Assembly (NCBI GenBank): GCA_031406795.1
Contig: JANOHV010000208.1
Location: forward strand, 1-53,457
Source of the DNA: Candidatus Rokuibacteriota bacterium
Lineage (GTDB): Bacteria > JAUVQV01 > DATDCY01
Length of the DNA: 53,457 nucleotides
Direction of reading: 5' to 3'
Shown: piece after piece, positions 24,164 to 44,231 of the stretch
Numbering within the stretch: the first letter of the stretch is position 1
How the letters are laid out: each line of letters starts with the position of its first letter
Translations under genes and position numbers: made by a program
The notes under the pieces: model-generated
The model's input: the letters and a program-made list of their open reading frames with translations, nothing else
What the model was told of the DNA's origin: nothing
Database searches by the model: none

Positions 24164-24880
24164 CTACGGGCGGTCCTCGCGGACGTAATCGCGTTCCACC
24201 AGGGCGAGAAAATCGGCGAGAAACGTGTCGGCCTCGCCGGCGAGCTCGCGAATGCGCGCGCCGATGATGTTATAGCCGAGCAGAGCAGGGATGGCCACGA
24301 CGAGGCCGAAGGCCGTCGCGATCAGCGCCTCGGAGATGCCGGACCCGACGGCGGTGACGCCGGTGGCCCCCTGGCTGCCCATGGCCTGGAACGCCTCGAG
24401 AATTCCCCAGACCGTGCCGAGCAGGCCGAGGAAGGGGGCGGCGCTGATGGTCGTCGCGAGGATGATCAGCAGGTGTTCGAGATCGAGGAAGTACTTGTCT
24501 TCGACGGCCGTGACCGTGCGGGCCAGCGTCGCGAACTGGTGCGGCCCGATGCGGGTGCGCGCCGGCGCCCCCGACAGGCCCGGCTCGCGTCCGAGGAAGG
24601 CCTGCAGTTCCTCGCACCCGCGGGAGAACACGGCGACCAGGGGCGACTCGAGCCGCGCCTTTGCGCCGCCGATCTGCCGATAGAGCCCCGGGATGTCCCG
24701 GCGGCTCTTCCGGTAGAGATCGAGGAAGCTGCGGGTGGCCGAGGCGTTGCGGTGCAGCAGCAGGCCCTTGCGGATCATGATCGCCCAGGCGACGACCGAG
24801 AGGAGAAACAGCAGCAGATAGATCGCCTTGGCCACGATGCTGGCGGAGGCGAAATGGTGCAACCAGAAATGCATGTCCAT
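24164..24880 (-). CDS. tolQ: TolQ/ExbB proton channel
   Basis: APFLGLLGTVWGI, GISEALIATAFGLVVAIPA. Confidence 0.9.
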   Translation of the reverse strand: MDMHFWLHHFASASIVAKAIYLLLFLLSVVAWAIMIRKGLLLHRNASATRSFLDLYRKSRRDIPGLYRQIGGAKARLESPLVAVFSRGCEELQAFLGREPGLSGAPARTRIGPHQFATLARTVTAVEDKYFLDLEHLLIILATTISAAPFLGLLGTVWGILEAFQAMGSQGATGVTAVGSGISEALIATAFGLVVAIPALLGYNIIGARIRELAGEADTFLADFLALVERDYVREDRP

Positions 24881-25052
24881 CGGCGTTCGCGTCCTCCCGT
24901 TGTTCGCGGTAGTATAGCCGAATGGACGCCCGAACCGTCAACGCCTGCGCCCACAGCGCTTGTGCCTTGCCTCAATCTTCACGCTGCTCTGGAATGCTTC
25001 TCGCAAGATCCCCCATGAGCTTGCACGCGGATTTTGGTGTGGGGGACCCCTG

Positions 25053-25724
25053 ATGGTGCAGACGAGCCGCGGCGCGGCGGCCGGACGCGTGACGCGAATC
25101 CTCGCGCTGCTCGAGCGTCACTACCCCGACGCCCGCTGCACCCTGACGTATTCCACGCCGCTGGAGCTGCTGGTGGCCACCATCCTCTCGGCGCAGTGCA
25201 CGGACGAGCGCGTGAACAAGGTCACGCCGGCCCTGTTCGCCAGGTATGGGAGCGCCGCTGCTTACGCCGCCGCCGATCCCGCGGTATTCGCGCAGGAGAT
25301 CCGTTCAACCGGCTTCTTCAGGAGCAAGGCGGCGAACATCATCGCCGCGGCAGGCAGGATGGTCGCCCGGCACGGAGGCGAGGTGCCCGGCACCCTCGAG
25401 GAGCTCACGGCGCTCCCCGGCGTCGGCAGGAAGACCGCGAACGTCGTCCTCGGGAATGCCTTCGGCATCCCCGGGATCGTGGTGGACACCCACGTCGGAC
25501 GGGTTGCCGGGCGGCTCGGGCTCACCGAAGCGTTCGACCCGGTGAAAATCGAGTTCGACCTCATGGCGCTCATTCCCCGCGCGCGCTGGGTAAAGTTCTC
25601 CCACCAGCTCATCGCGCACGGTCGGGCGCTCTGCCGGGCTCCGCGGCCGCTCTGCGCGGCGTGCTTCCTCGACGCCCCGCTGTGCCCCGGTCGGATCGCG
25701 CCGCGGCTTGCCCCCGCTCCCTGA
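25053..25724 (+). CDS. nth: Endonuclease III
   Basis: LLVATILSAQCTDERVN, LPGVGRKTANVV, VDTHVGR, C-terminal 4Fe-4S cysteines. Confidence 0.95.
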   Translation: MVQTSRGAAAGRVTRILALLERHYPDARCTLTYSTPLELLVATILSAQCTDERVNKVTPALFARYGSAAAYAAADPAVFAQEIRSTGFFRSKAANIIAAAGRMVARHGGEVPGTLEELTALPGVGRKTANVVLGNAFGIPGIVVDTHVGRVAGRLGLTEAFDPVKIEFDLMALIPRARWVKFSHQLIAHGRALCRAPRPLCAACFLDAPLCPGRIAPRLAPAP

Positions 25725-25822
25725 AAAGATGTATTCTCTTTCCGCTGCGGTCGCCCCCGGGATCCCACCCGGAGCGCCAGGAAGCCGCAGCCGACCGATT
25801 GCGATGCGGAAGGAGGTTCTCG

Positions 25823-26791
25823 CTGGAAATTATTGGCCAGAGTTCGGGGATCCGCCGCGTGAAGGAGCTGGTTTCCAAGGTGGCGCCGTCCGGCCACACC
25901 GTGCTCGTTCAGGGCGAGAGCGGCGTGGGCAAGGAACTGGTGGCGCGCTCGATCCACCAGTCCAGCCCCCGCCGTGACCGTCCGTACGTCGTGGTCGATT
26001 GCGGGATGCTCAACGAGAATCTGCTGCAGAACGAGCTGTTCGGCCATCAGAAGGGCGCCTTCACCGGCGCGACCGCGCTCAAGCATGGTCTCTTCGAGGT
26101 CGCCGACACCGGGACGCTCTTTCTCGACGAGATCGGCGAGGTCAGCCCGGTGCTGCAGGCGAAATTGCTGCGCGTGCTCGAAACCGGCAGTTTTCGGCGC
26201 CTCGGCAGCACGGTGGACCTGAAAGTGGACGTGCGGCTGGTGGCCGCGACCAACCGCGACCTGCTGCAGATGAGCCGCGAGGGCACCTTCCGGGAGGATC
26301 TCTTCTACCGTCTCAATGTCTTCCCCGTGCTCGTTCCGCCGCTGCGCGAGAGGCGCGACGACATCCCGCTGCTGGCGCGGCACTTCCTGCGACGGGCGAA
26401 CCACCCGGGGGGCGAGAAGAAGCTTGCACCCGAGGCGCTGGAGCTGCTCAAGTCGTACGCGTGGCCGGGGAACATCCGCGAACTGCAGAACATGATCGAA
26501 AGCGCGGTGATCATTGCGGAGACCGCGGAGATTCAGGCGCGGGATCTCCCCGTGGTCGTGCGGGGACAGGACCCGCAGGCCGGGTTCGACCTGTCCGAAA
26601 ACATGTCTCTCGAGGAGTTGGAGCGGCGCTACATCGGTCTGCTGCTCGAGCGCCTCGGCGGTCATCGCGCCAAGGTGGCCAAGGTGCTCCAGATCAGTGA
26701 ACGCAACCTGTACCGGAAGCTCCGCGCCTATGAACTCGCCGACGCCAGCGTCGGCAGCCGGCGGCGCGCCCCGGTGGCCGGCACCCACTGA
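25823..26791 (+). CDS. Sigma54-dependent enhancer-binding protein (AAA+ plus Fis HTH, no N-terminal sensor)
   Basis: GESGVGKE, ELFGHQKGAFTGA, LFLDEIGE, FREDLFYRL, WPGNIREL, C-terminal HTH. AAGGAGG lies 6 nt before an in-frame CTG at 25823; the longer ORF overlaps nth. Confidence 0.9.
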   Translation: MEIIGQSSGIRRVKELVSKVAPSGHTVLVQGESGVGKELVARSIHQSSPRRDRPYVVVDCGMLNENLLQNELFGHQKGAFTGATALKHGLFEVADTGTLFLDEIGEVSPVLQAKLLRVLETGSFRRLGSTVDLKVDVRLVAATNRDLLQMSREGTFREDLFYRLNVFPVLVPPLRERRDDIPLLARHFLRRANHPGGEKKLAPEALELLKSYAWPGNIRELQNMIESAVIIAETAEIQARDLPVVVRGQDPQAGFDLSENMSLEELERRYIGLLLERLGGHRAKVAKVLQISERNLYRKLRAYELADASVGSRRRAPVAGTH

Positions 26792-26825
26792 CACCCCGTC
26801 AGAGCGCCGACTGACATCATGTCAG
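26788..26825. promoter_or_regulatory. Paired palindromic sites (putative enhancer/UAS) for sigma54 promoter 1
   Basis: CTGACAcccCGTCAG (26788-802) and perfect CTGACAtcaTGTCAG (26811-25). Confidence 0.65.
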
Positions 26826-26931
26826 GGCGCCGGGGCCCCGGCGCGCCGGGACCCTCCTGCGTCTCCCGTCCCCCGCCGGAATCCCCGCTGAAGTCCGCAT
26901 TATTGGCGACGTCGCACCGCGCTGTTGCTGT

Positions 26932-26947
26932 TGGTACAAGTTTTGCT
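26932..26947 (+). promoter_or_regulatory. Sigma54 -24/-12 promoter 1
   Basis: TGGTACAAGTTTTGCT: GG-N10-GC, close to TGGCAC-N5-TTGC(A/T). Confidence 0.75.
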
Positions 26948-26975
26948 TTCTTCTTGCGCGCAAGGAGGAAGGTAC

Positions 26976-27365
26976 GTGCCGATCCCGAAAGTGCTGGTCT
27001 TTTCGCGCAAACCGCCGGAGGAGGGGGGGCTGAGCGCCATCCTCGCCGAGGAAGGCTTCCAGGTCGAGTGGACCGACAGCGGGCCATCGGCGATCTGTGA
27101 GGCGCTTTCGGGCAACCTCGCGGCCTGCATTATTTTCGTGAGCCGCAACGCCGAGCGCGAAGTCGATTACATCCCCTGCCTGAACCGGGTCGATCCGAAA
27201 CTGCCGATCATCGTCATCAGCGAGCACGATTCGGTGGAGCTTCAGCGCAAAGTGCGCCGCCACCGCGTCTTCTACTACCTGCTGCTTCCCCTCGACCGGG
27301 AGGAAATCAGCGCGGTGCTGCGCAATGCCGTGCGCACGCCGGTGAAGAAACGCAAGCGCTCCTGA
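26976..27365 (+). CDS. Stand-alone atypical (pseudo) receiver-domain protein
   Basis: AAGGAGG then GTG 26976. CheY-like pattern (ILAEEGFQV, DPKLPIIVIS, VFYYLLLPLDREEI) but lacks the acidic pocket, phospho-Asp and conserved Lys. Confidence 0.7.
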   Translation: MPIPKVLVFSRKPPEEGGLSAILAEEGFQVEWTDSGPSAICEALSGNLAACIIFVSRNAEREVDYIPCLNRVDPKLPIIVISEHDSVELQRKVRRHRVFYYLLLPLDREEISAVLRNAVRTPVKKRKRS

Positions 27366-27377
27366 AGCCCCCGGCTC

Positions 27378-27413
27378 CTGCCATGCTGTCATCAGCGCCT
27401 GACAATTCGTCAG
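27378..27413. promoter_or_regulatory. Paired palindromic sites (putative enhancer/UAS) for the dsr promoter
   Basis: CTGCCAtgcTGTCAT (27378-92) and CTGACAattCGTCAG (27399-413), same motif as at 26788-26825. Confidence 0.6.
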
Positions 27414-27506
27414 CGCCGACGCATCGTGAATGTGAGTGCAGTCACGAGGTGCGGGCACTCTCTGCAAAACCATGGCCTTAGCGCGGTTTTCGACTTTCCC
27501 GGCTGC

Positions 27507-27522
27507 TGGTATGTTTCTTGCT
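27507..27522 (+). promoter_or_regulatory. Sigma54 -24/-12 promoter upstream of dsrT
   Basis: TGGTATGTTTCTTGCT: GG-N10-GC, about 30 nt before the dsrT ATG. Confidence 0.75.
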
Positions 27523-27553
27523 TTTTATTAGAGAGCGATTTGGAGGGGAGAGC

Positions 27554-28033
27554 ATGGGACTGAGCGAGGCGCTGGCTGCGAAGCGGGAAGCGGTTCTGGA
27601 GCGGTGGTTCCAGGCCGTGCTCGCCACCTACCCCGAGGACACGGCGCGCTTTCTCGCGGGCGGCTCCGATCCCTTCGCCAACCCCGTCGGCCACACGGTC
27701 CGCGAGGGGCTCGGTCGGCTCTACGACCGTTTCGCCGCCGAAGTGCCGGTTGCCGAGCTCTCCGCCGCGATCGACGGAATCGTGAGGATCCGGGCGGTGC
27801 AGGAGTTCACCCCGTCGGCGGCCGTCAGCTTCGTCTACACCCTCAGGGGAATTCTCCGCGACGAGCTGACGGACGCTGCGCTCGATCGTCCGGCGCTGAC
27901 CGCGCTGGAAAACGGCGTCGATCGTCTGGCGCTCGTCGCCTTCGACGTGTACATGCAGTGCCGCGAGAAAATCTTCGAGATCCGGGTGCGCGAGATCAAG
28001 GAGTCGCAACTCCTGGCCGCGCGCCTCGGGTGA
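27554..28033 (+). CDS. dsrT: DsrT (RsbRD N-terminal domain protein)
   Basis: DPFANPVG, IVRIRAVQEFTPSAAV, AFDVYMQCREKIFEIRVRE; immediately upstream of dsrM. Confidence 0.9.
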   Translation: MGLSEALAAKREAVLERWFQAVLATYPEDTARFLAGGSDPFANPVGHTVREGLGRLYDRFAAEVPVAELSAAIDGIVRIRAVQEFTPSAAVSFVYTLRGILRDELTDAALDRPALTALENGVDRLALVAFDVYMQCREKIFEIRVREIKESQLLAARLG

Positions 28034-28082
28034 TGAAGCGTACCGGGCAGTTTCCCAGGGGCCAAAAGCGGGGGGAGGGCGA

Positions 28083-29081
28083 ATGAAGCTACTGAGTGCT
28101 CTGGCAGCCGTGGTGATCCTCACGGCAATCGGGCTCGCGGGGGGTAGTTCCGGTGGGCTGCAGCCACTGTTCGGCATCTGGATCCCGTACCTCGCGGTTG
28201 CCATGTTCATCGGCGGCACCGTCATGGCGGTGATCCGCTGGGGACGGTCGCCGGTCCCGTTCCGCATCCCGACGACCTGCGGGCAGCAGCGGGCGCTGCC
28301 GTGGATCCCGAACGACTCGCTGGACAACCCGCATACGACGGGCGCGGTCCTCAAGCGGATGTTCCTCGAAGTCTTCCTGTTCCGCTCGCTCTTCCGCAAC
28401 ACCCGGATGAAGCTGCAGAACGGTAACCTGGTCTACGGATCGACGAAGTGGCTCTGGCTCGGCGCTCTGGCTTTCCATTACGCGTTCTTCACGATCCTGA
28501 TCCGCCACCTGCGTTTCTTCCTCGAGCCGGTCCCCGCGCTTATCGCCGCGATGGACAAGGCGGACGGCTTCTTCCAGGTCGGCCTGCCCTCGATGTACCA
28601 GACTGACGCCGTGATCCTCGCGGCCCTCGGCTTCCTGCTCGCGCGCCGGCTGCTCGAGCCGCAGGTGCGCTACATCAGCTTCGCTTCCGACTTTTTCCCG
28701 CTGCTGTTGATCGGCGCGATCGCGGTCACCGGCGTGCTGATGCGCTACTTCGTGCGGGTCGACGTCACGGCCATCAAACAGCTCGCGATGAGCCTGGCCA
28801 CCTTCTCGCCGGCCGTCCCCGCCGGGGTCGGCGCGCTCTTCTTCGCGCACCTGTTCCTGATCTGCGCGCTGCTCGCGTACTTCCCCTTCTCGAAGCTGCT
28901 GCACGCACCGGGGGTGTTCATGAGCCCGACGCGCAACCTCGCGAACAACAGCCGCGAGGTGCGCCACATCAACCCCTGGAATCCCGATGTCAAGGTGCAC
29001 ACCTACGAGGAGTGGGAGGAGGAGTTCCACGTGCCGATGAAGAAGGCCGGCTTCCCCCTCGAGAAGGAATACAAGGAGTAG
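28083..29081 (+). CDS. dsrM: DsrM membrane cytochrome b
   Basis: PVPFRIPTTCGQQ, EVFLFRSLFRN, FHYAF..IRHLR, YFPFSKLLHAPG, PTRNLANNSR. Confidence 0.95.
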   Translation: MKLLSALAAVVILTAIGLAGGSSGGLQPLFGIWIPYLAVAMFIGGTVMAVIRWGRSPVPFRIPTTCGQQRALPWIPNDSLDNPHTTGAVLKRMFLEVFLFRSLFRNTRMKLQNGNLVYGSTKWLWLGALAFHYAFFTILIRHLRFFLEPVPALIAAMDKADGFFQVGLPSMYQTDAVILAALGFLLARRLLEPQVRYISFASDFFPLLLIGAIAVTGVLMRYFVRVDVTAIKQLAMSLATFSPAVPAGVGALFFAHLFLICALLAYFPFSKLLHAPGVFMSPTRNLANNSREVRHINPWNPDVKVHTYEEWEEEFHVPMKKAGFPLEKEYKE

Positions 29082-29084
29082 ACG

Positions 29085-30689
29085 ATGGCGACGCCGAAAC
29101 CGCAGGAACTCGTCAATACCGTCAAGAGCCAGCCCCCGGCGACGGAGTGGATGGACACGCCGCTGGACTTCCGGCCCGGCACTTTCTGCTATTCCGGTAA
29201 GGAGAAGTTCGTCGAGTACCTCGGCTTCCCCTTTCCGCGCGAGTGGCGGGCGCAGGAGGCCGACTGGAAGCTGCCGCCGAACTGGAAGGAGATCATCCTC
29301 GAGGGGATCCGCGAGCGGCTGCTGAAGTTCCGCTCCTTCCACCTGTTCATGGATATCTGCGTGCGCTGCGGCGCCTGCGCCGACAAATGCCACTTCTTCA
29401 TCGGCTCCGGCGACCCGAAGAACATGCCGGTGCTGCGCGCCGAGCTGATGCGCTCGATCTACCGGCGCGAGTTCACGAAGGCCGGCAAGATCTTCGGCAA
29501 GATGGCCGGCGCGCGCGAGTTGACCCCCGAGGTCATCAAGGAGTGGTACCAGTACTTCTACCAGTGCACCGAGTGCCGGCGCTGCTCGGTGTACTGTCCC
29601 TACGGCATCGACACCGCCGAGGTCACGATGATGGGGCGTGAGTTGATGCACCTGATCGGCGTGAACATCAACTGGATTCTCGAGCCCGCCGCGAACTGCT
29701 TCCGGGTCGGCAACCACCTCGGCATCACGCCGCACGCGTTCAAGGGCAGCATCGAAGGCCTCGTCGACGACGTCGAGAGCGCGACCGGGATCCGCGTCAA
29801 CCCGACCTTCAACCGCAAGGGCGCCGAGATCCTCTTCGTGACCCCGTCGGCCGATGCGTTCGCCGCGCCGGCGATCTTCACGCTGATGGGCTACCTGCTG
29901 CTCTTCCACCAGATGGGGATCGACTACACGTTCTCGGCGTACAACTCCGAAGGCGGCAACTTCGGGCTCTTCACGTCGAACGAGATGATGAAGCGGCTCA
30001 ACGCCAAGATGTACGCCGAGTCCAAGCGCCTCGGCGTCAAGTGGATCCTCGGCGGCGAGTGCGGCCACATGTGGCGCGTGGTTCACCAGTACATGGACAC
30101 GATGAACGGCCCGGCGAACCACCTCGAGGTGCCCAAGTCGCCGGTCACCGGGACTGTTTTCGAGCACGCCAAGTCGACGAAGATGGTGCACATCTGCGAG
30201 TTCACCGCGGACCTGATCCACAACAACAAGCTCAAGCTCGACCCGAGCCGCAACGACAAGTACCAGGTCACGTTCCACGACTCCTGCAACACTGCGCGCG
30301 GGATGGGGATGATGGAGGAGCCGCGCTACATCATCAACAGTGTGATGAACCCCGCCAACTTCCACGAGATGCCCGAGAACACGATCCGCGAACAGACCTA
30401 CTGCTGCGGTTCCGGATCGGGATTGAACACCGACGAACTGATGGAGATGCGCATGCGCGGCGGCTTCCCCCGCGCGAATGCCCTCAAGTCCGTCGTCGAC
30501 AAGCACGGCGTGAACCTGATGGCCACGATCTGCGCGATCGACAAGGCGACGCTCTCGTCGCTGGTGGACTACTGGAACCCCGGGGTCGAGATCGGCGGCG
30601 TGCACGAGTTGCTCGGCAACGCGCTGATCCTGGACGGCGAACCGGAACGCACGCAGAATCTGCGCGGCGAGCCGCTCAAGGAGGAGTAG
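29085..30689 (+). CDS. dsrK: DsrK (HdrD-like Fe-S subunit)
   Basis: CVRCGACADKCHF, CTECRRCSVYCPYGID, GECGHMWR, HDSCN, CCGSG. Confidence 0.96.
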   Translation: MATPKPQELVNTVKSQPPATEWMDTPLDFRPGTFCYSGKEKFVEYLGFPFPREWRAQEADWKLPPNWKEIILEGIRERLLKFRSFHLFMDICVRCGACADKCHFFIGSGDPKNMPVLRAELMRSIYRREFTKAGKIFGKMAGARELTPEVIKEWYQYFYQCTECRRCSVYCPYGIDTAEVTMMGRELMHLIGVNINWILEPAANCFRVGNHLGITPHAFKGSIEGLVDDVESATGIRVNPTFNRKGAEILFVTPSADAFAAPAIFTLMGYLLLFHQMGIDYTFSAYNSEGGNFGLFTSNEMMKRLNAKMYAESKRLGVKWILGGECGHMWRVVHQYMDTMNGPANHLEVPKSPVTGTVFEHAKSTKMVHICEFTADLIHNNKLKLDPSRNDKYQVTFHDSCNTARGMGMMEEPRYIINSVMNPANFHEMPENTIREQTYCCGSGSGLNTDELMEMRMRGGFPRANALKSVVDKHGVNLMATICAIDKATLSSLVDYWNPGVEIGGVHELLGNALILDGEPERTQNLRGEPLKEE

Positions 30690-30692
30690 ACG

Positions 30693-31082
30693 ATGATCTA
30701 CGACAAGGGCAAGATCTTCGCCGGCCTGGCGATCTTCGTCGGCCTGGTCGCGTCGCCGTTCTGGTACAACCCGGTCTTCGGCACGGGGTCTGCCGCGCCG
30801 CCGGAAGTTCAACTGCCGGCGGCGCCCGCGAAATGCGTGCTGCCGCGCGACGAGATGCGGGCCTCGCACATGCAGGTCATCTACGACTGGCGCGAGAAGG
30901 TGGTGCGCGACGGGGCGCGGACGTACCCGCACCCGGACGGTGAGGACCGCCCGATGAGCCTCTCGAACACCTGTCTCGGCTGTCACGAGGGCAAGAAGAA
31001 GTTCTGCGACACCTGTCACGAATACCTCGCGGTCCAGCCGTTCTGCTGGGACTGCCACTTCGACCCGAAGGAGCATGTCTAA
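30693..31082 (+). CDS. dsrJ: DsrJ triheme cytochrome c
   Basis: MIYDKGKI N-terminus; three CxxCH motifs (CLGCH, CDTCH, CWDCH); conserved KCV and HM. Confidence 0.93.
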   Translation: MIYDKGKIFAGLAIFVGLVASPFWYNPVFGTGSAAPPEVQLPAAPAKCVLPRDEMRASHMQVIYDWREKVVRDGARTYPHPDGEDRPMSLSNTCLGCHEGKKKFCDTCHEYLAVQPFCWDCHFDPKEHV

Positions 31083-31105
31083 TGGGCACGGATGAGGGGA
31101 AGGGG

Positions 31106-31888
31106 ATGGACAGACGGGGATTCCTCAAGCTCGCGGGGCTCGGCGCCCTCGGGGCCGCCGGTCTGCCTGCCGGCTGGAGCCTGCTGCAGCCCGGCGAGGC
31201 GCTGGCGTCGGCCCCGGCGGCCGCGCGCGGCGGCAAACGCTGGGCGATGGTCGTCGACATGCGCAAGGGTTGCCCGGATGACTGCCGCAAGTGCACCACC
31301 GCCTGCCACCAGGAACACAACGTCCCGTCGTTCGCCGACGAGACCGATCCCAAGCGGCATGAGATCAAGTGGATCTGGAAGACGGCGTACCACAGCGCGT
31401 TTCCCGGCAACGAACAGCAGTTCGCCCGCGAAGACCTCGAGCACAAGGAGACCGTGGTCCTGTGCAATCACTGCGAGCACCCGCCCTGCGTGAAGGTCTG
31501 CCCGACCCAGGCGACCTACCAGCGGCCCGACGGGATCGTGATGATGGATTTCCACCGCTGCATCGGCTGCCGCTTCTGCATGGCCGGCTGCCCCTATGGC
31601 GCGCGCAGCTTCAACTGGCGCAATCCGCGCGCCGGCCTGCCCGCGAAGGTGCCGAACCCGGCGTACCCGACGCGGATGATGGGCGTCGTCGAGAAGTGCA
31701 CGTTCTGCTCCGAGCGGCTGGACAAGAACCTGCAGCCGGCCTGCGTCGAAGCCTGCACCGAGAAGCTCCTGGCTTTCGGCGACCTGCAGGATGCGGCCGC
31801 GCCGGTGCGCGCGCTGCTCAAGGAGCACTTCACCATCCGTCGCAAGCCGAACCTGGGGACGCAGCCCCAGGTTTACTTCATCATCTAG
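31106..31888 (+). CDS. dsrO: DsrO periplasmic ferredoxin-like subunit
   Basis: Tat signal MDRRGFLK; CNHCEHPPCVKVCPT, CIGCRFCMAGCPYG, EKCTFC. Alternative start at 31082. Confidence 0.93.
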   Translation: MDRRGFLKLAGLGALGAAGLPAGWSLLQPGEALASAPAAARGGKRWAMVVDMRKGCPDDCRKCTTACHQEHNVPSFADETDPKRHEIKWIWKTAYHSAFPGNEQQFAREDLEHKETVVLCNHCEHPPCVKVCPTQATYQRPDGIVMMDFHRCIGCRFCMAGCPYGARSFNWRNPRAGLPAKVPNPAYPTRMMGVVEKCTFCSERLDKNLQPACVEACTEKLLAFGDLQDAAAPVRALLKEHFTIRRKPNLGTQPQVYFII

Positions 31889-31901
31889 GAGGAGGCGGGC
31901 C

Positions 31902-33059
31902 ATGCTGGAAAAAGCGCTCACGGGTAGCACACGGTACCGCGCTTGGGTCGGCGGCCTCCTGCTGGTGATCCTGGTCGGCGTCGCCTGTTACGTCATGCAG
32001 TTCAACGAGGGACTGGGCATCACGGGCATGAGCCGGGATGTCACCTGGGGTTTCTACATCGCCCAGTTCACGTTCCTCGTCGGCGTCGCCGCCTCCGCGG
32101 TGATGCTCGTCATCCCCTACTACCTGCACCACTACAAGGCCTTCGGCAAAATCACGATCCTCGGGGAGTTCCTGGCGATCGGCGCGGTGACGATGTGCCT
32201 GCTTTTCATCCTCGCCGACCTCGGGCAGCCGATGCGCGCGATGAACGTGATCCTGCACCCGACGCCCGGCTCGATCCTGTTCTGGGACATGATCGTCCTC
32301 AACGGCTACCTGTTCCTGAACGTGCTGATCGGCTGGACGACGCTGACCGCCGAGAAGAAGGGGATCCCGTCGCCGAAGTGGATCAAGCCGTTCATCTACC
32401 TCTCCGTGCCCTGGGCGGTTTCGATCCACACCGTCACGGCCTTCCTCTACGCGGGCCTCCCCGGCCGCGGTTTCTGGCTGACGGCCGTCCTGGCGCCGCG
32501 ATTCCTGACCTCGGCGTTCGCCGCCGGCCCCGCGCTGCTGATCCTGCTCGCGATGCTGGTGCGCAAGCTCTCGAAATTCGACCCGGGCCGGGAGCAGATC
32601 CAGACCCTCGCGAAGATCGTGGCCTATGCGCTGCCGCTGAATCTCTTCCTGCTCGGCTGCGAGGTCTTCACGGTCTTCTACAGCAACATCCCCGACCACA
32701 AGCTGCATTTTCAGTACCTCTACTTCGGGCTGGACGGGCATAATGCCCTGGTGCCCTGGATGTGGAGTTCGGTCGCCCTCGGGCTTGCGGCGGCCGTGCT
32801 GCTGGTGAATCCCGGGACGCGGCGCAACGAGACGATCCTGGCCTGGGCCTGCGGTATGACGTTCGTGGCCACCTGGATCGACAAGGGCCTCGGCATGATC
32901 TCGGGCGGGTTCGTCCCGAACCCCCTCGAAGAGATCACCGAGTACTGGCCGACGCTGCCGGAGGGGCTCATCGCCCTCGGCATCTGGGCGATCGGCGCGC
33001 TGATCGTCACCGTGCTCTACAGGGTGGCGATCTCGGTGCGAGAGCAGGAGGCGGCGTAA
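31902..33059 (+). CDS. dsrP: DsrP (NrfD-family membrane subunit)
   Basis: MLEKAL, GMSRDVTWGFYIAQFTFLVGVAASAVM, SIHTVTAFLY; strong RBS. Confidence 0.94.
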   Translation: MLEKALTGSTRYRAWVGGLLLVILVGVACYVMQFNEGLGITGMSRDVTWGFYIAQFTFLVGVAASAVMLVIPYYLHHYKAFGKITILGEFLAIGAVTMCLLFILADLGQPMRAMNVILHPTPGSILFWDMIVLNGYLFLNVLIGWTTLTAEKKGIPSPKWIKPFIYLSVPWAVSIHTVTAFLYAGLPGRGFWLTAVLAPRFLTSAFAAGPALLILLAMLVRKLSKFDPGREQIQTLAKIVAYALPLNLFLLGCEVFTVFYSNIPDHKLHFQYLYFGLDGHNALVPWMWSSVALGLAAAVLLVNPGTRRNETILAWACGMTFVATWIDKGLGMISGGFVPNPLEEITEYWPTLPEGLIALGIWAIGALIVTVLYRVAISVREQEAA

Positions 33060-33166: not shown

Positions 33167-33502
33167 ATGGCGCACATCGAAGTGAACGGCAAGCAGATCG
33201 AGGTCGACGAGGACGGCTACATTCAGCGGCTCGAGGACTGGACCGAAGACGTCGCCAAGTACATCGCGAACGTCGAGCAGGTCGAGTTGACCCCCGAGCA
33301 CTGGGAGATCATCAACTTCCTGCGCAGCTACTACCAGGAGTACAAGATCGCGCCGATGATCCGGATCCTGACCAAGGAAATCGCCAAGAAGATGGGACCG
33401 GAGAAGGGCAACACCAAGTACCTGTACTCGCTGTTCCCCGCCGGCCCGGCCAAGCAGGCCTGCAAGATCGCCGGTCTGGCCAAGCCCGCCGGCTGCGTGT
33501 AG
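33167..33502 (+). CDS. dsrC: DsrC sulfur carrier (both C-terminal cysteines present)
   Basis: GAGGAGG RBS; VDEDGY; GPAKQACKIAGLAKPAGCV gives C-x10-C. Confidence 0.96.
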   Translation: MAHIEVNGKQIEVDEDGYIQRLEDWTEDVAKYIANVEQVELTPEHWEIINFLRSYYQEYKIAPMIRILTKEIAKKMGPEKGNTKYLYSLFPAGPAKQACKIAGLAKPAGCV

Positions 33503-33528
33503 GGCGCGATCGCGGTGTTGGGGCTCCC

Positions 33529-34164
33529 GTGTCGACGTTGCGTCGCTCGGTTCGTGGCCACCTCGAGAGCGGGGATTACGCCCCGGTCCTCTCGCTGGTC
33601 GTTGCCGACCGGGGTGTCGTGCGCGCGCTGGTCTCCCTGCTCTGCGATCCCGACGAGCTGCTGCGGTGGCGGGCGGTGAGCGCTCTCGGCCAGCTGGCCG
33701 GGGCGCACCCGGATCTGGCGCAGCCGCTCGTGGCGCGGCTGTACTGGAGCCTCAACGACGAGTCCGGGGGCATCGGCTGGATGTCGGCGCCGGCCCTCGG
33801 CGAGATCGGCCGCTTCGCGCCGCAGTTGCTCAGCAAGTGCGTCCGGCCCCTCGTCCGCTACCTCGACGAGCCGTTCCTGCTCGCCGGGTCGCTCTGGGCG
33901 ATCGGCCGGCTCGCGCCGGCGTACCCGGCGGAGACGCGGGAGGTTGTCCCCGAGGTTGCGCTTTGCTGCGCCTCGGCCGACCCGGCGGTGCGGGCCAGCG
34001 CGGCCTTCGCCCTCGGCGCGGTCGGGGACGGCCGGGCGCGCATCGCGCTCACGGGTCTTGCCGACGACCAAAGCCCGGCGCGGCTCTACGAGGAGGGACA
34101 GTTGGTGACCAAGCAGGTGCGGGAATGGGCCGGGGAAGCGCTCTCCCGGCTGCGGGCGGCGTAG
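33529..34164 (+). CDS. HEAT-repeat protein, DVU0298-like
   Basis: DPDELLRWRAVSALG, LYWSLNDESGGIGW, DPAVRASAAFALG. Family name is from recall. Confidence 0.75.
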   Translation: MSTLRRSVRGHLESGDYAPVLSLVVADRGVVRALVSLLCDPDELLRWRAVSALGQLAGAHPDLAQPLVARLYWSLNDESGGIGWMSAPALGEIGRFAPQLLSKCVRPLVRYLDEPFLLAGSLWAIGRLAPAYPAETREVVPEVALCCASADPAVRASAAFALGAVGDGRARIALTGLADDQSPARLYEEGQLVTKQVREWAGEALSRLRAA

Positions 34165-34233
34165 ACTCCGCGCCAACGAACCACACACTCCCCGCCGCTG
34201 GTGGCGGGGCGATCTGAAAGGGAGGATGTACAG

Positions 34234-35427
34234 ATGGCGGATCACGTTCACAAGTACAAGACCCCGATGCTCGACGAGCTCGAGAAGGGGCCGTGGCCGA
34301 GCTTCGTGAAGGAGATCAAGCGGGCGGCCGCAAAGAGACCGATGGCCGAAGGTCTTCTCGGGCAGCTCGAGCGGTCTTACAAGGACAAGCAGACCTACTG
34401 GAAGCACGGCGGTCTCGTCGGCATCCAGGGTTACGGCGCCGGCATCATCGGCCGCTACTCGGCCCTCGGGACGGAGTTCCCCGAGGTTGCCGCCTTCCAC
34501 ACGGTGCGTATCAACCAGCCCGCCGGCTGGTTCTACACCTCGAAGGCCCTGCGCACGCTGTGCGACATCTGGGACAAGCACGGCTCGGGTCTGCTCAACG
34601 TGCACGGCTCCACCGGCGACTTCGTGCTGCTCGGAACGACATCGGAGAAGCTCGAGGATTGCTTCACGGACTACTCGAACGCGGGCTGGGACCTCGGCGG
34701 GTCTTCCTCCGACATGCGGACCCCCTCCTGCTGCAACGGCATGGCGCGCTGCGAGTTCGCCTGCTTCGACACGATGGCGCTCTGCCACGACCTGACCATG
34801 ACCTACCAGGACGAGCTGCATCGTCCGGCCTTCCCGTACAAATTCAAGATCAAGATCGCCGGCTGCCCGAACGACTGCGTGGCGTCGATCGCCCGCTCCG
34901 ACCTCTCCATCATGGGCACCTGGAAAGACGAGATCCGTATCGACCAGGCCGAGTGCCAGGCCTACATCAAGGCCGGGATGGACATCGTCGCCGAGATCAC
35001 CGGGATGTGTCCGACCGCCTGCATGACGTGGGACGGCAAGACGATGAAGATCAACAACCACGAGTGCAACCGCTGCATGCACTGCATCAACTTCATGCCC
35101 AAGGCCCTGCGCCACGGCAAGGAGACGGGTGCCACGATCCTCGTCGGCGGCAAGGCCCCGATCCTCGAGGGCGCGCAGTTGGCATCCGTGGTCGTGCCCT
35201 TCATGCCGATGAAGGCGCCCTTCTCGGAGATCAAGGAGTTCATTCAGAAGCTCTGGGACGTCTGGGGCGAGAACGGCAACAACCGCGAGCGCATCGGCGA
35301 GTTCATGCTCCGCGTCGGGGTCGGCAACTTCATGGAGTCCATCGGCGAGGCGCCGAACCCGAACATGGTCATGCACCCCCGCGAGAACCCCTACATCTTC
35401 TACGAAGAGTACTTCGAGGAAGAGTAG
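34234..35427 (+). CDS. dsrA: Dissimilatory sulfite reductase alpha subunit
   Basis: [34 protein letters not shown] and GCPNDC siroheme-Fe4S4 ligands, [12 protein letters not shown]. Confidence 0.98.
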
Positions 35428-35490
35428 CTTCCGGCGCTTGTTGCGGAAATCAAACCAACGACGGCCTAACGGCAGGAGGATACAGAAAAC

Positions 35491-36567
35491 ATGGCAGCTG
35501 CCAAGCGTGAGACGGACATCGGCCCGCCCCACTATGAACAGTTTCTGCACCCGGTCATCAAGAAGAACTACGGCACCTGGAAGTACCACGAGACCCTCAA
35601 GCCCGGCGTGATGGTCCACGTGGCCGAGAGCGGCGACAAGATCTTCACCGTGCGCGCCGCCTCGCCCCGCCTCGTGAGCACCGACTTCATCCGCGACCTG
35701 GCGTCCCTCGCGGACAAGCACTGCGAAGGGCACCTGCGCTTCACGAGCCGCAACAACTGCGAGTTCATGACCGGCGAGCAGAAGAACATCGACCCGCTGA
35801 TCGCGGACCTCGCCAAGCTCGGGATCCCGGTCGGGGGCCTGAACAACTCGATCTCGAACATCGTCCACACCCAGGGCTGGGTCCACTGCCACACCCCGGC
35901 GACGGATGCCTCCGGCGTCGTCAAGGTGCTCATGGACGACCTGATCGACTACTTCACGCACGAGAAGCTCCCCGCGAAGCTGCGCGTCGCGCTCGCCTGC
36001 TGCCTGAACATGTGCGGCGCGGTGCACTGCTCCGACATCGCGGTCCTCGGCATCCACCGGCGGCCGCCGAAGGTCAACAACGCCCGCGTCACCGATCTCT
36101 GCGAGATCCCGACGACGGTCTCGTCCTGCCCGACGGCGGCCATCCGCCCTGCGATGGTCGACGGCAAGCAGACCGTGACGGTCGACGAGTCGCGCTGCAT
36201 GTACTGCGGCAACTGCTACACCTCCTGCCCGGCGATGCCGCTCGCGAACCCGATCAACGACGGTGTCTCGATCTGGGTCGGCGGCAAGGTCTCCAACGCC
36301 CGCAGCATGCCGATGTTCTCGAAGCTGGCGATCCCCTACCTCCCGAACAACCCGCCGCGCTGGCCCGAGGTCACCGACGCCGTGCGCAAGCTGGTCGAGG
36401 TCTACGCCAAGCACGCCATCAAGCACGAGCGTTTCGGCGAGTGGGCGAACCGGATCGGCTGGCCGCGGTTCTTCGAGCTCACCGGTCTGGAGTTCACCAA
36501 GTACCACATCGACGACTACAAGCTGGCGCAGAAGACCCTGCGCTCCACCGCGCAGATCAAGTTCTAG
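35491..36567 (+). CDS. dsrB: Dissimilatory sulfite reductase beta subunit
   Basis: [49 protein letters not shown]. Confidence 0.98.
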
Positions 36568-36585
36568 GCGAAGGAGACGACGACA

Positions 36586-36831
36586 ATGGCCGTTCCCCAC
36601 GCAGACCTGGCAGAGGGCATCTTCAAGATGGTCGAGGCCGACGCGGGCAAGATGCGCTACAAGCCGCGTGACCTGGAGAAGGGCATGACCAAGAAGTTCG
36701 GCGAGGGCTCGTTCTCGAAGGAAGAGTTCAAGGCCGCGCTCAAGGACCTGATGGACAACGGGCGCCTGATCTACGGGTACTACGGCGGCGTTTCGGTGGA
36801 GTTGCCGCATCAGGAAGGCTCCGCGAAGTAG
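36586..36831 (+). CDS. dsrD: DsrD
   Basis: 81-aa winged-helix-like protein directly after dsrB (FKAALKDLMDNGRLIYGYYGG); AAGGAG RBS. Confidence 0.82.
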   Translation: MAVPHADLAEGIFKMVEADAGKMRYKPRDLEKGMTKKFGEGSFSKEEFKAALKDLMDNGRLIYGYYGGVSVELPHQEGSAK

Positions 36832-36992: not shown

Positions 36993-38684
36993 ATGGCGGA
37001 GATGAAAGTCGTCAAGAAGGTCATGAAGCTCGGCGGCCGCGGCGCGGCCGGCGGCAAGAACGAAGATACCGGGCTGCGGCCGTACTATGTCGAGAAGCTC
37101 CCGCCGTGCACCTTCATGTGCCCGAGCGCGGAGGACATCCGCGGGTACCTGACGTTTATCGCACAGGCGGAAAAGTACGGTCGGAGCGCCTCCGATTCCT
37201 TCACCGAGGGCTGGCACATCATCACGAACCGCAATCCCTTCCCGGCGACGATGGGCCGCATTTGCCCGCACCCCTGCGAAGGCGCCTGCAACCGCGGCAA
37301 GCTCGATACGCCGGTGGCGATCAACAACATGGAGCGCTGGGTCGGTGACTGGGGCATCAAGCACCAGCTGCGCGCCCGCAAGATCTCCGACGAGAAGCGG
37401 CCGGAGAAGGTCGCGGTCGTCGGCGGCGGACCCGCCGGACTCTCCGCCGCCTACCAGCTGGCGCGCCGCTGCTACGCGGTGACGGTGTTCGAGGGAGCCG
37501 TGAAGGCCGGCGGCATGCTGCGCTACGGCATCCCGAGCTACCGCCTCCCGGATGAAGTGCTCGACGCCGAGATTCAGGCGATCCTCGACCTGGGCGTCGA
37601 ACTGCGCACCGGCGTGCAGATCGGCCGCGACATTGCGATGGAGGACCTGCGGCGCGACTTCCAGGTCGTGTACCTGGCGATCGGCGCGCAGAAAGGCGTC
37701 AACCTCGGCCTCCCTGGCGAGGACGCGCCGAACTGCTTCTCCGGCGTCGACTTCCTGCAGCGCGTCCGGATCGGCGAGAACATCGACGTCGGCGACAAGG
37801 TCATCGTCATCGGCGGCGGCAACACGGCGATCGACGCCGCGCGCACCTCGCGCCGGCTCGGCGCGCACGTGACGCTGCTGTATCGGCGCACCCGCAAGGA
37901 AATGCCGGCGATCGAGCACGAGATCACCGAGGCCGAACACGAGGGCGTGGTGTACGAGTTCCTGTCGGCGCCGCAGGAAATTGTCGTCAAGGACGGCCGC
38001 GCCGTCGCGGTGAAGTGCCTGCGCATGGAGCTCTGCGAGCCCGATGCCAGCGGCCGGCGCCGTCCGGTCCCGGTGCCGGGGTCGGATTACGAGGTCCCCT
38101 GCACCGCGGTGATCGCTGGCATCAGCCAGACCCCGGTCTGGACCGGCATCGAGGAGTTCCGCGGGGAGAAGGGCTGGATCGACGTCAACGAGGTCCACGA
38201 GACGTCGGTCCCGGGCGTGTTCGCCGGCGGGGATGTCACCGTGGGTCTGGGCATCGCGACCCAGGCGATCGGGCTTGGCCGCCAGGCCGCGGAGGTCATC
38301 GACCGGAAGTTCCAGAACCTCAACGCCCCCGAGCCCGACACGCGCAAAATCATCCGCGCCGACCAGATCATCGGCCTGCAGCTCAACGAGAAGAAGCCGC
38401 GGATAGAACGCCGCCAGATCCCGGTGGCCGAGCGTCTGATGGACTTCCGGGAGTGCGACACGACCTACGAGGAGTCCGAGGCGGTCACCGAGAGCAAGCG
38501 CTGCCTCTCCTGCGGGCTGTGCTGCGACTGCGACAACTGTTTCATGTACTGCCAGGCAAAGGCGATCGAGCGGCTCGACAAGAGCCTGCCGATCGGCCAG
38601 CACTACAAGGCGATTTTCGAGAAGTGCATCGGCTGCAAGAAGTGCGCGGAAGCGTGCCTCTGCGGCTACATCGACATCCGCTAG
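36993..38684 (+). CDS. dsrL: DsrL iron-sulfur flavoprotein (DsrL-2 type, YRR motif)
   Basis: RPYYVEKLPPC...CPSAEDIRG, NPFPATMGRICPHPCE, GGGPAG, GGGNTAID, LYRRT, C-terminal RCLSCGLCCDCDNC...CIGCKKCAEAC; position after dsrD. Confidence 0.9.
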   Translation: MAEMKVVKKVMKLGGRGAAGGKNEDTGLRPYYVEKLPPCTFMCPSAEDIRGYLTFIAQAEKYGRSASDSFTEGWHIITNRNPFPATMGRICPHPCEGACNRGKLDTPVAINNMERWVGDWGIKHQLRARKISDEKRPEKVAVVGGGPAGLSAAYQLARRCYAVTVFEGAVKAGGMLRYGIPSYRLPDEVLDAEIQAILDLGVELRTGVQIGRDIAMEDLRRDFQVVYLAIGAQKGVNLGLPGEDAPNCFSGVDFLQRVRIGENIDVGDKVIVIGGGNTAIDAARTSRRLGAHVTLLYRRTRKEMPAIEHEITEAEHEGVVYEFLSAPQEIVVKDGRAVAVKCLRMELCEPDASGRRRPVPVPGSDYEVPCTAVIAGISQTPVWTGIEEFRGEKGWIDVNEVHETSVPGVFAGGDVTVGLGIATQAIGLGRQAAEVIDRKFQNLNAPEPDTRKIIRADQIIGLQLNEKKPRIERRQIPVAERLMDFRECDTTYEESEAVTESKRCLSCGLCCDCDNCFMYCQAKAIERLDKSLPIGQHYKAIFEKCIGCKKCAEACLCGYIDIR

Positions 38685-38702: not shown

Positions 38703-38740
38703 ACGGCGGGGGGCCTGCGGGCCTCCCGCCGTATTTATTT
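38703..38740 (+). terminator. Intrinsic terminator of the dsr operon
   Basis: ACGGCGGGGGGCC-tgcg-GGCCTCCCGCCGT followed by ATTTATTT. Confidence 0.7.
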
Positions 38741-38762
38741 CGGGAAGAATCGTTCCAGGGTG

Positions 38763-38954
38763 CGAGGCGGTGGGGGATCCCCTTCGGTCGTGCGTCTGCG
38801 CCGCCGGCCCGGAGCCGTGCCCGGTGCTCGCGGACTCGTAACTCGCCTTCGGCTCAAACAACGAGCCCGCGTCCCTGCGGGACCGTCCCGGTCACGGCTC
38901 CGGGCTGATCGGCGGCTCCGCGCATCTTCCCTCAGTGGATCCCCAACCGCCTCG
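38763..38954. repeat. About 190-bp long imperfect palindrome
   Basis: CGAGGCGGTGGGGGATCC and GGATCCCCAACCGCCTCG are 17/18 inverted; inner arms GCCCGGAGCCGTG and CACGGCTCCGGGC. Confidence 0.7.
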
Positions 38955-38970
38955 TCGATGCATGGTACGA

Positions 38971-39238
38971 AGAGGCTGATCAAAAGGGTCCAGGTGCAAG
39001 GCAGCTCCCCGAAGCTGCGACTGAGGCGGGCTGGTGCCCGCCGCAGGGAGCCGCGAGGAGGGCAACGCCGCAGATGGGCCGTTTTCAGCGGCCGTCACGG
39101 TAGCGGAGAGGCTGATCAAAAGGGTCCAGGTGCAAGGCAGCCCCCCGAAGCTGCGACTGAGGCGGGCTGGTGCCCGCCTCAGGGAGCCGCGAGGAGGGCA
39201 ACGCAGCAGATGGGCCCTTTTCAGCGGCCGTCACGGTA
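38971..39238. repeat. Two tandem copies (136-bp period) of a palindromic MITE-like repeat
   Basis: Near-identical units 38971-39102 and 39107-39238; imperfect inverted ends GGCTGATCAAAAGGGTCCA and TGGGCCCTTTTCAGCGGCC. Confidence 0.85.
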
Positions 39239-40099
39239 TACGAGCCAGTCGCCGTTGGCGATGCGCGGATGGCGGTCGGTGCCCGCCCAGAGATAGGTCC
39301 ACGCGAGCTGATCGGCTGCCTCCGCGGTCGTCACCTTGATCAGCGCGCGCCGGAACAGCGCGCGCGCGGCCTCGAAACCCTCGAAGCCTTCCACGCCGTC
39401 GAGGTGCGTCAAGGCCAGGGGTACATCGCGCAGGCCGACCAGTTCGCCGTGAACGACCCCGTCGGTGCCAGCAAGCATCCCGGGGAACGCGCCGCAATCG
39501 AGAATGACGCCTCTTGCTGTGGCCGGGAGGGCGCTTGCGGCGCCGCCGCAGCGCTCGAACTCGCCGTGCCGGCTGCCGCCGCGCAGCAGCGTGCCGTAGA
39601 CGAAGAGCCCGGTCACGAGAAATGGCGCGTGTTCGCCGCGCGCCGCGGCCCGGAGCATGCGGTCGTCGTGACCGAAGGCGGCGAGGCCCGCGGCGACGAT
39701 GTCGACGTACGCCGCCGCCGGTTCGACCGGTGCCGGCTGGCGGTATTCGGGAGTGACCTCGTACGCCCGCGCCATGACCTCCCGCCCGTCGGCGAGGAGC
39801 ACCCGCTTCTCGACCTGGTGGTAAATCAGCGGCACACCCTCCTTGAGGTCGAGCGTCCGCATGTCCTCCTCGGTCACCTCGAAGAGCGCGCCGGTCACGA
39901 TCCTGCCGACACCCGGCCGCAGATCGAGAACGCCCCCCTTGCGCGACGAGGAGGTGCAGTCGAACACCAGTTCGTGATCCGGCAGGTACGCCGCCACGCC
40001 GGCTCGCACCATCAGCGCGGGGGGGCGCCCCAGCCGCTGGCACCAGAGCTCGAGATCCCTGAGGTTCAGATTCGACCCGTACGCGAAGCACCGATCCAT
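39221..40099 (-). CDS. Gamma-glutamylcyclotransferase-family protein with two GGCT-like domains
   Basis: FAYGSNL...LDLKEG and LFVYGTLLRG...LDGVEG motifs; GGAGG RBS. Confidence 0.82.
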   Translation of the reverse strand: MDRCFAYGSNLNLRDLELWCQRLGRPPALMVRAGVAAYLPDHELVFDCTSSSRKGGVLDLRPGVGRIVTGALFEVTEEDMRTLDLKEGVPLIYHQVEKRVLLADGREVMARAYEVTPEYRQPAPVEPAAAYVDIVAAGLAAFGHDDRMLRAAARGEHAPFLVTGLFVYGTLLRGGSRHGEFERCGGAASALPATARGVILDCGAFPGMLAGTDGVVHGELVGLRDVPLALTHLDGVEGFEGFEAARALFRRALIKVTTAEAADQLAWTYLWAGTDRHPRIANGDWLVYRDGR

Positions 40100-40230
40100 T
40101 GCATCCCTCCCCGGATTACTAGTCCGCCGCTAGCATACCAAGAATCACTCCCGGCGCGAACCAGCGAAGTGAGGCGACGCAGGACGCGGACATCGTGCGG
40201 CGTCGGGCGGCATTGCGGTACAATAAGAAG

Positions 40231-40920: not shown

Positions 40921-40923
40921 GGC

Positions 40924-44012: not shown

Positions 44013-44067
44013 GGAATTGCTCACACTCTATACCCTCGCCGGCGCTGACGCAAGGCCTTACTCATAC

Positions 44068-44231
44068 GGGCCCTTTTCAGCGAGAAAGTGCACGGTAGCG
44101 GAGATGCTGAGTCAAAAGGGTCCAGGTGCAAGGCGCCCCACGATCGGCGCATGAGGCGGGCTGGTGCCCGCCGCAGTAAGCCGGGAGGAGGGCAACGCCG
44201 CAGATGGGCCCTTTTCAGCGGCCGTCACGGT
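44068..44231. repeat. Third (plus partial fourth) copy of the 136-bp repeat family
   Basis: CAAAAGGGTCCAGGTGCAAGGC...GAGGCGGGCTGGTGCCCGCCGCAG...GGCAACGCCGCAGATGGGCCCTTTTCAGCGGCCGTCACGGT. Confidence 0.85.

Follow-up and report, generated by a model that had tools for sequence, protein, structure and literature searches.

What turns sulfate respiration on and off is poorly understood, and the question is posed by the dsr locus of a Candidatus Rokuibacteriota bacterium (contig JANOHV010000208.1 of assembly GCA_031406795.1), where no sigma-70 consensus lies ahead of the genes. The window, i.e., the whole stretch of DNA analyzed, is 53,457 nt long, and coordinates without a contig label refer to it. 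Here, nth is followed by the gene for a sigma-54-dependent bacterial enhancer-binding protein (bEBP), a pair of palindromes, a promoter, an open reading frame (ORF) for a 129-aa receiver-like protein, a second palindrome pair, a second promoter, and dsrT-M-K-J-O-P-C; a HEAT-repeat gene, dsrA, dsrB, an 81-aa ORF, a dsrL-like gene, and a terminator-like hairpin complete the series. The original prediction held that sigma-54 enhancers and a dedicated adjacent activator drive an inducible dsr operon. The best reading of the sequences is wider: a sigma-54 regulon would span the dissimilatory sulfate reduction pathway, with dsrT to dsrL, aprBA-qmoABC-sat, hppA, and, where present, a YeeE/TusA sulfur transport operon as its members.

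All four predicted 15-bp palindromes are present. Enhancer pair 1 (26788..26825) consists of palindromes at 26788-26802 and 26811-26825, spaced 23 bp apart; pair 2 (27378..27413) has them at 27378-27392 and 27399-27413, spaced 21 bp apart. The weakest, at 27378, has 2 mismatches to a perfect palindrome. A CooA-type reading of these sites (TGTCA-N6-TGACA) is ruled out by their inner gap of 8 to 10 bp. The two GG-N10-GC promoters, 26932..26947 and 27507..27522 on the forward strand (predicted starts near 26958 and 27533), fit the whole sigma-54 promoter consensus, TGGYAY-N5-TTGCW. The loose GG-N10-GC pattern, with 1287 matches in the window, is uninformative alone; the strict form occurs twice in the window (average over 200 shuffles, 0.05, with none reaching 2) and 14 times across the 4.1-Mb genome. 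No sigma-70 consensus was found in 24800-28100, and the search for a sigma-70 promoter ahead of the activator, the receiver-like gene, or dsrT yielded none. The genome encodes RpoN (one PF04552 match in a 473-aa frame). These features support a sigma-54 enhancer architecture at both promoters. As to which genes they would drive, promoter 2 heads dsrT, as proposed, whereas promoter 1 heads the small receiver-like gene. NtrC/NifA-type promoters likewise have two dimer sites about two helical turns apart, located 90 to 140 bp upstream of the -24/-12 element and conserved in phase. The paired sites, the phased spacing, and genes of the IHF/HU family (three in this genome) are shared with that type, but the motif is another one, neither a kinase nor a phospho-receiver takes part, and the targets belong to core energy metabolism.

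To follow the sites beyond the window, a matrix trained on the four window palindromes alone, which may miss weaker regulon members, was run over the whole source genome (G000). It returned four pairs at 33.5 to 41.6 bits, each with a sigma-54 site 91 to 106 bp away. The fifth-best pair (23.4 bits) has no such site, and the top pairs in three shuffled genomes score 22.4, 16.2, and 18.3 bits. Sites with up to 2 mismatches are found as 43 singles and only 4 pairs 15 to 60 bp apart, two of which are the window pairs. The two pairs outside the window, at aprB-aprA-qmoABC-sat and at hppA, are each followed about 92 bp on by a sigma-54 promoter. The recurrence of the motif at sat, aprBA, and qmo had been anticipated; hppA is an addition. 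The name sat comes from Pfam, those of the qmo genes from sequence and position. HppA is an H+-translocating pyrophosphatase and can consume the pyrophosphate produced by Sat.

The other five genomes of this six-genome phylum (G001 to G005) bear out the expected conservation in relatives. dsrA is present in five of the six, G000 to G004, and all five keep the cassette; G005, which is 77% complete, has no dsrA, aprB, enhancer pair, or matching helix-turn-helix (HTH) domain. A pair was found at each of the 17 promoters examined in G000 to G004 (5 of the receiver-like gene, 5 of dsrT, 3 of aprB, and 4 of hppA); aprB was not found in G002. Pair 1 is retained in all five dsr-bearing genomes with a spacing of 22 to 23 bp, and seven positions are invariant across 34 sites, which were picked with the matrix. 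The enhancer-to-promoter distance is 92 to 94 bp at 11 of 12 metabolic promoters (105 bp at the twelfth) and 106 to 110 bp at four promoters of the receiver-like gene (117 bp at the fifth), so that the outlier in either class is off by roughly one turn of the helix. A search allowing 1 mismatch gives 12 distinct loci in G001 to G004, 11 of them at dsrT, aprB, hppA, or yeeE (one aprB was assigned by synteny over a contig break), and none in the dsr-less G005; the reversed control gives 1 match. The twelfth locus (L266, G004:C35:2876-3079) carries a full cassette, with the pair, the additional box described below at +17, and a sigma-54 site, at a contig end, with its target gene unassembled.

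Could such sites arise by chance in GC-rich DNA? The ubiquity of the loose promoter pattern points that way, as do metagenomes, where, among the at least 120 pair matches listed, 109 have no sigma-54 site 60 to 135 bp downstream. However, 11 of those listed do have one, compared with 0 in the control window, and these fall at 3 dsrT, 2 aprB, 2 yeeE-tusA, and 4 unrelated loci. The shuffle controls, the matches at predicted genes outside the training set, and the phased conservation of sites whose spacers diverge make chance similarity exceedingly improbable. Outside the phylum (401 genomes), a pair above 18 bits was found at none of the 21 dsrM loci whose upstream sequence spans 490 bp or more (2 further loci are too short) and at none of the 26 aprB loci, which also have no sigma-54 site; this survey would miss promoters farther upstream. 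Similar palindrome pairs also occur at two loci from other bacteria (L110 and L168), where a sigma-54 site follows 65 bp on, ahead of tandem paralogues for membrane-type proteins of 68 to 70 aa next to a recO-like gene. We regard a lineage-wide sigma-54 regulon for sulfate respiration as real; its kind of promoter is known, its split activator would be unusual, and a second gate would be added.

The activator gene (25823..26791, forward strand) encodes a 322-aa protein with an AAA+ domain and a Fis-type HTH. As claimed, this GAFTGA protein adjoins the cassette; it has intact Walker A, GAFTGA, Walker B, sensor I, arginine finger, and sensor II motifs (residues 31, 78, 100, 142, 156, and 214). 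The Pfam domains PF00158 (E value of 7e-67), PF25601, and PF02954, the last scoring over its cut-off, begin at residue 3. An N-terminal regulatory domain is lacking: the stop codon of nth and the first AAA+ residues are 104 nt apart. The start codon appears to be CTG, 6 nt past a ribosome-binding site at 25810-25816; a ribosome-binding site followed by CTG 6 to 8 nt on is kept in G000 to G003 despite 1-nt indels upstream that shift the frame. In G004, the start is an ATG, 13 codons before the AAA+ domain.

The activator stop codon falls within the first palindrome of pair 1. G000 has 29 bEBP loci, and a site near the stop codon is unique to this one (22.0 bits; no other exceeds 6.6), which agrees with the notion of a dedicated neighbor; the adjacent activator probably binds the palindromes. 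The palindromes could instead be bound by another bEBP, about 26 more being present, or by a repressor that blocks sigma-54 promoters served from elsewhere. The inner half-sites of the 21-spaced pairs do admit a reading as TGT-N12-ACA, which the accessible part of PMC4641369 gives as a motif class common among bEBPs. However, the spacing of pairs varies from 21 to 23 bp while the 3-bp inner spacer is constant, and single palindromes lie 71 bp apart in genomes G011 and G041; the 15-bp palindrome is therefore the unit. Together with the possession of sites at its own stop codon by this bEBP only, and with the joint absence of activator and sites from G005, this makes another binder very unlikely. 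A similar pair also lies at the stop codon of a PAS-type bEBP (L129) that is unrelated but has a comparable recognition helix.

How a signal reaches an activator of this kind is the next question. The receiver domain PF00072 is lacking in 45 of its 46 closest homologues. The exception, P0026, was considered as a fused receiver-plus-activator; its first two thirds come from another NtrC subfamily, and it was judged a chimeric assembly and left out of the alignment and the tree. In a FastTree phylogeny of 44 sequences (a subsample of the matches, rooted on L106), the 13 receiver-less proteins of the group fall into a single clade (support of 0.997) within receiver-bearing bEBPs, and these receiver-bearing relatives share a KHGL(F/L)EVA flank after GAFTGA. 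There is no receiver on the activator and no adjacent kinase gene in G000 to G004, in contrast to NtrC-type two-component systems. The activator in this phylum has lost its own sensor and is probably controlled instead by a small separate partner that it switches on. The claimed inducibility was not borne out: the activator has no sensor domain and, by family precedent, would therefore be active by default, so that a signal must enter via a partner, the amount of activator, or a second box.

The candidate partner is the stand-alone receiver-like protein (26976..27365, forward strand), a putative trans-acting regulator of the activator. It has a receiver fold with no acidic pair, Phe54 in the column of the phosphorylated Asp, and no conserved Lys, and is here referred to as the pseudo-receiver. 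In the wider family, whose members are mostly stand-alone, Asp is kept in 3 and Lys in 14 of 36 aligned proteins, and R91, R94, F99, Y100, Y101, P105, and E110 are near-invariant. An Atlas search confirmed a receiver-like family and found nothing beyond that.

The association with the activator extends past this phylum. In a survey of 30 loci from 48 genomes with a similar HTH, plus L034, six loci outside the phylum belong to the activator subfamily (five by the loop flank and one, cut by a contig end, by its HTH). The pseudo-receiver directly follows the activator in five of the six (one match is weaker, at 69 bits), and similar palindromes are found at the activator stop codon in three. Loci outside the subfamily have at most ordinary stand-alone receivers (47 bits or less), and several bEBPs with a similar helix and no KHGL flank have no site. 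The subfamily activators from outside the phylum, where seen, keep their receiver, with a kinase gene upstream at L235, L284, and L286. In G011 and G041, the subfamily locus is followed by multiheme cytochrome genes.

These data bear on the possibility that the activator is constitutive and the pseudo-receiver acts elsewhere, on a kinase, DsrT, or a respiratory complex, with the signal arriving through the second box or the amount of activator. Some family members are domains of multi-receiver proteins, a paralogue following cysK has no activator or enhancer nearby, and the second box at dsrT is as well conserved as the enhancers. The order of activator and pseudo-receiver is nevertheless held across phyla, and the interface predicted below overlaps the family-invariant R91, R94, Y100, Y101, P105, and E110; we consider an unconnected pseudo-receiver improbable. 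The paralogue itself (57% identical; L027, G000:C51:5162-5533) lies after genes for an Rrf2 regulator, a MetY-like protein, and CysK, at a locus with no sigma-54 site, and is also found in G001 to G003; a second copy, at G000:C86:8068-8190, looks partial.

A complex model of activator and pseudo-receiver reached an ipSAE of 0.71, whereas the best of 3 controls, which included no ordinary receiver, reached 0.00. In calibration, 116 of 157 solved pairs scored at or above the mark, as did 2 of 215 mismatched ones. At least 94% of the contacts are common to the runs, and the predicted local distance difference test (pLDDT) score of the partner is at least 82. The modeled interface joins activator residues 54-71 and 81-95, i.e., the C-terminal half of GAFTGA and the KHGL flank, to residues 85-117 of the pseudo-receiver. 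Its columns are better conserved than the others in both the activator (0.99 versus 0.84) and the pseudo-receiver (0.72 versus 0.43), but all bEBPs conserve the region of the GAFTGA loop, so that the conservation of the interface is overstated. Moreover, receiver and AAA+ domains are the two halves of the solved NtrC1/NtrC4 structures (1ny5, 3dzd, and 4l4u), and the pass may be recall of these. The model is a measure of the plausibility of contact, not of binding, and carries no sign of control. On this basis, a contact beside the GAFTGA loop is slightly favored.

Would such a contact hold the activator back or help it? The pseudo-receiver might be a positive subunit, standing in for the lost receiver and favoring hexamer assembly, and the positive feedback would then produce a bistable on/off switch for sulfate respiration. 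The nesting of the single receiver-less clade among receiver-bearing relatives would suit this idea, the strongest enhancer pair heads the pseudo-receiver gene, and the model is silent on the sign. However, a pseudo-receiver already stands beside relatives that keep their own receiver and kinase, and hence it is not the detached domain. In addition, the modeled contact takes in the helix ahead of the GAFTGA loop and the C-terminal half of the loop itself, and an inhibitor is known to act there: the accessible part of PMC8528422 describes the anti-activator FleN of Pseudomonas aeruginosa as binding helix 3 and loop 1 of the FleQ AAA+ domain. A positive subunit is accordingly unlikely. Because of this resemblance, we tentatively favor inhibition over stimulation, at somewhat less than even confidence. 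Each of the five lineage copies of the pseudo-receiver, like the paralogue, has C68, a residue absent from the two G011 homologues; thiol sensing through it is a guess.

The second box (27431..27446) is of the TGTGA-N6-TCAC type and lies 17 bp past enhancer pair 2. A box at this distance is found at all five dsrT and three of the four hppA promoters, with a half-site at the fourth hppA. It lies 10 bp past the pair, with 2 mismatches, at all three aprB promoters and 18 bp past the pair at yeeE in L137 and L156. In contrast, the best match at each of the five pseudo-receiver promoters has at least 3 mismatches. G000 contains 36 boxes with up to 1 mismatch, mostly intergenic, and the binder is therefore a global regulator. 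The sequence suits Rex and Crp/HcpR equally; rex is present in all six genomes, and G000 has two Crp/Fnr genes. As a first guess, Rex, a sensor of NADH/NAD+, might be the binder, at a little under even odds, and a Crp/HcpR protein is a possible but weaker candidate. An aprB-like box without an enhancer pair precedes genes for a YeiH-family putative sulfate transporter and a rhodanese-like protein (L283, G000:C24:3106), a possible member of the Rex/Crp regulon only.

The following mechanism would account for the sites, their geometry and conservation, the domain loss, and the gene order. Activator dimers would occupy both palindromes, which lie two helical turns from each other, and looping of the DNA would bring them to the sigma-54 polymerase about 92 to 94 bp away. 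Having no sensor, the activator would be active by default and, given its CTG start, probably scarce. It would also transcribe the pseudo-receiver gene, whose product would dock beside the GAFTGA loop and most likely restrain the activator, in a negative feedback of the PspF/PspA or FleQ/FleN style. A Rex- or Crp-family protein at the box would gate the metabolic promoters only, blocking or helping the loop. Since the feedback promoter has no box, the balance of activator and partner would be set independently, and the metabolic genes would need a second, probably redox, condition. As a whole, a pathway-wide sigma-54 regulon with a split activator and a second gate is the best explanation and a reasonably likely one.

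Several observations weigh against it. The roughly 26 other bEBPs could act from afar, and the recognition helix alone has no predictive power for the site: within 400 bp of several outside bEBPs whose helix is similar, none was found. G004 departs from the pattern three times: its hppA has no cassette, its yeeE has a sigma-54 site and one half-site only, and the box is missing at its presumed aprB promoter.

The predicted dsrTMKJOPC-ABDL operon was recovered with two reservations. All its genes lie on the forward strand: dsrT (27554..28033; RsbRD_N domain, PF14361), dsrMKJOP (28083..33059; DsrK, DsrM, DsrJ, DsrO, and DsrP each over the cut-off of an NCBIfam equivalog), dsrC and the HEAT-repeat gene (33167..34164), dsrA, dsrB, and the 81-aa ORF at the dsrD position (34234..36831), and a gene for a dsrL-like NAD(P)H flavoprotein (36993..38684; PRK12771 over cut-off, with Fe-S and Pyr_redox domains), which owes its name to family and position. 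The HEAT-repeat gene, of the DVU0298 family (33529-34164; also in G003 and G004), splits dsrC from dsrA, and the identity of DsrD was not confirmed: the 81-aa ORF (36586-36831) has no DsrD match in Pfam, NCBIfam, or PDB sequences and is possibly a divergent DsrD. An intrinsic terminator-like hairpin with a 13-pair stem, the strongest of 17 matches, would end the operon (38703..38732, forward strand). No sigma-54 or sigma-70 consensus was found upstream of dsrC, dsrA, or the dsrD-position ORF in G000, G001, G003, and G004, where the gene was matched, and from this we infer a single 11-kb transcript from promoter 2. In metatranscriptome run X1, contigs of a close relative (about 97% identical) span dsrM to dsrL, being contigs that carry no starts, strand, or level; run X2 contains only a small share. 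Just 5' of the ribosome-binding site of dsrA lies a GC-rich hairpin (34195-34215) that G001 and G003 retain and for which G004 has a related counterpart; it could stabilize a processed dsrAB message. Beyond the terminator, siroheme synthesis genes (cysG-like halves) and a cobB/dsrN-like amidase gene (40195-43235) have no enhancer pair. Related noncoding stretches at 38735-39340, after dsrL, and 44020-44300, after the siroheme-amide cobB-like gene, are probably small dispersed repeats.

At the apr locus, a gene for a FadL/TodX-type outer membrane barrel (G000:C1:31153-32457, L001:7154-8458) is divergent from aprB and shares its enhancer region; such a gene also lies beside the G004 cassette on C363 and might encode a channel for sulfur compounds. 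The 200-nt aprB leader (G000:C1:30650-30850) is conserved in the genus and rich in GGA motifs, suggesting possible posttranscriptional control. The proposed facultative life style receives slight support from NorBC and an NrfA-family cytochrome in G000, where neither a bd oxidase nor a true Cox1 was found; bd oxidase is present in all three genus-mates, and G003 and G004 have strong Cox1-family matches.

Among known systems, PspF/PspA and HrpRS/HrpV consist of sensor-less bEBPs controlled in trans. Activators of the PspF/HrpRS type, as well as DVU2956, DVU2894, and DVU2989 of Desulfovibrio vulgaris, have the same composition as the one described here, AAA+ plus Fis HTH and no N-terminal domain; unlike PspA and HrpV, the candidate partner here is a receiver-fold protein. 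FleQ transcribes fleN, but FleN is a P-loop ATPase and FleQ keeps its N-terminal domain, whereas here a stand-alone pseudo-receiver would be the partner, respiratory genes are the targets, and inhibition is a deduction. The D. vulgaris sigma-54 regulome, as far as it is accessible (PMC4641369), lists no dsr, apr, or sat target, names four sensor-less bEBPs, and suggests that activators of this sort have partner proteins. An effect of DVU2956 on sulfide production is stated in a reference title in PMC8586430; the listed target of DVU2956 is the DVU2957-2964 transport operon, and "dsr" is absent from the main text of that paper (PMC4641369). Compared by target, the present activator would instead serve dsr, apr, sat, and hppA. 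FisR of Cupriavidus and Acinetobacter is a sigma-54 activator of sulfur metabolism genes, but it has its own sensor domain and, in the sections available, controls sulfide oxidation and detoxification rather than dsr, apr, or sat (PMC7315123).

A full-text search, with most subscription papers and supplements outside its scope, brought up no paper that places dsr, apr, or sat under sigma-54, and the term "dsr" is absent from the accessible parts of a Clostridiales and a cross-phylum sigma-54 survey (PMC6615313 and PMC12316311). The dsr clusters of Chlorobaculum are assigned RpoD or extracytoplasmic function (ECF) promoters in the portion seen of 10.1101/172254, and a regulatory role for DsrT is proposed, and no more than that, in the corresponding portion of PMC10504309. 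For the second box, precedents come from Desulfovibrio, where a TGTGA-N6-TCACA-type element before sat and apsAB has been assigned to HcpR (PMC545781, in part), and Rex and HcpR are described as sharing sites (PMC5701242, in part). The predicted Desulfovibrio Rex regulon, with qmo, sat, a pyrophosphatase gene, dsrABD, apsAB, and dsrMKJOP, nearly matches the set of targets found here, and in the accessible results, a rex mutant showed under-twofold effects and none on dsrAB, aprBA, or dsrMKJOP (PMC4045070). A similar site lies upstream of sat and aprBA in both cases, but in Desulfovibrio the site and a -10-like box overlap at sat and apsAB, whereas the one described here stands between enhancer pair and sigma-54 promoter.

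A further conjecture, possible but rather doubtful, is that the free pseudo-receivers, a widespread and undescribed family, are phosphorylation-independent regulatory subunits of one bEBP subfamily and dock next to its GAFTGA loop. With the receiver and kinase of the activator lost in this phylum, the self-induced pseudo-receiver would have become the control input of a master switch for sulfate respiration as a whole, perhaps with sensing of sulfur intermediates through the lineage-specific C68 and a redox gate at a Rex-type box. For the biology of this lineage, the proposal comes down to one defined activator, one defined site, and four promoters spanning the pathway from sulfate activation to sulfide. 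The parts are small and soluble, which makes them testable in Escherichia coli without culturing the organism. If pseudo-receivers do regulate bEBPs, this would be a new mode of sigma-54 control, one that would also apply to respiratory operons in other phyla.

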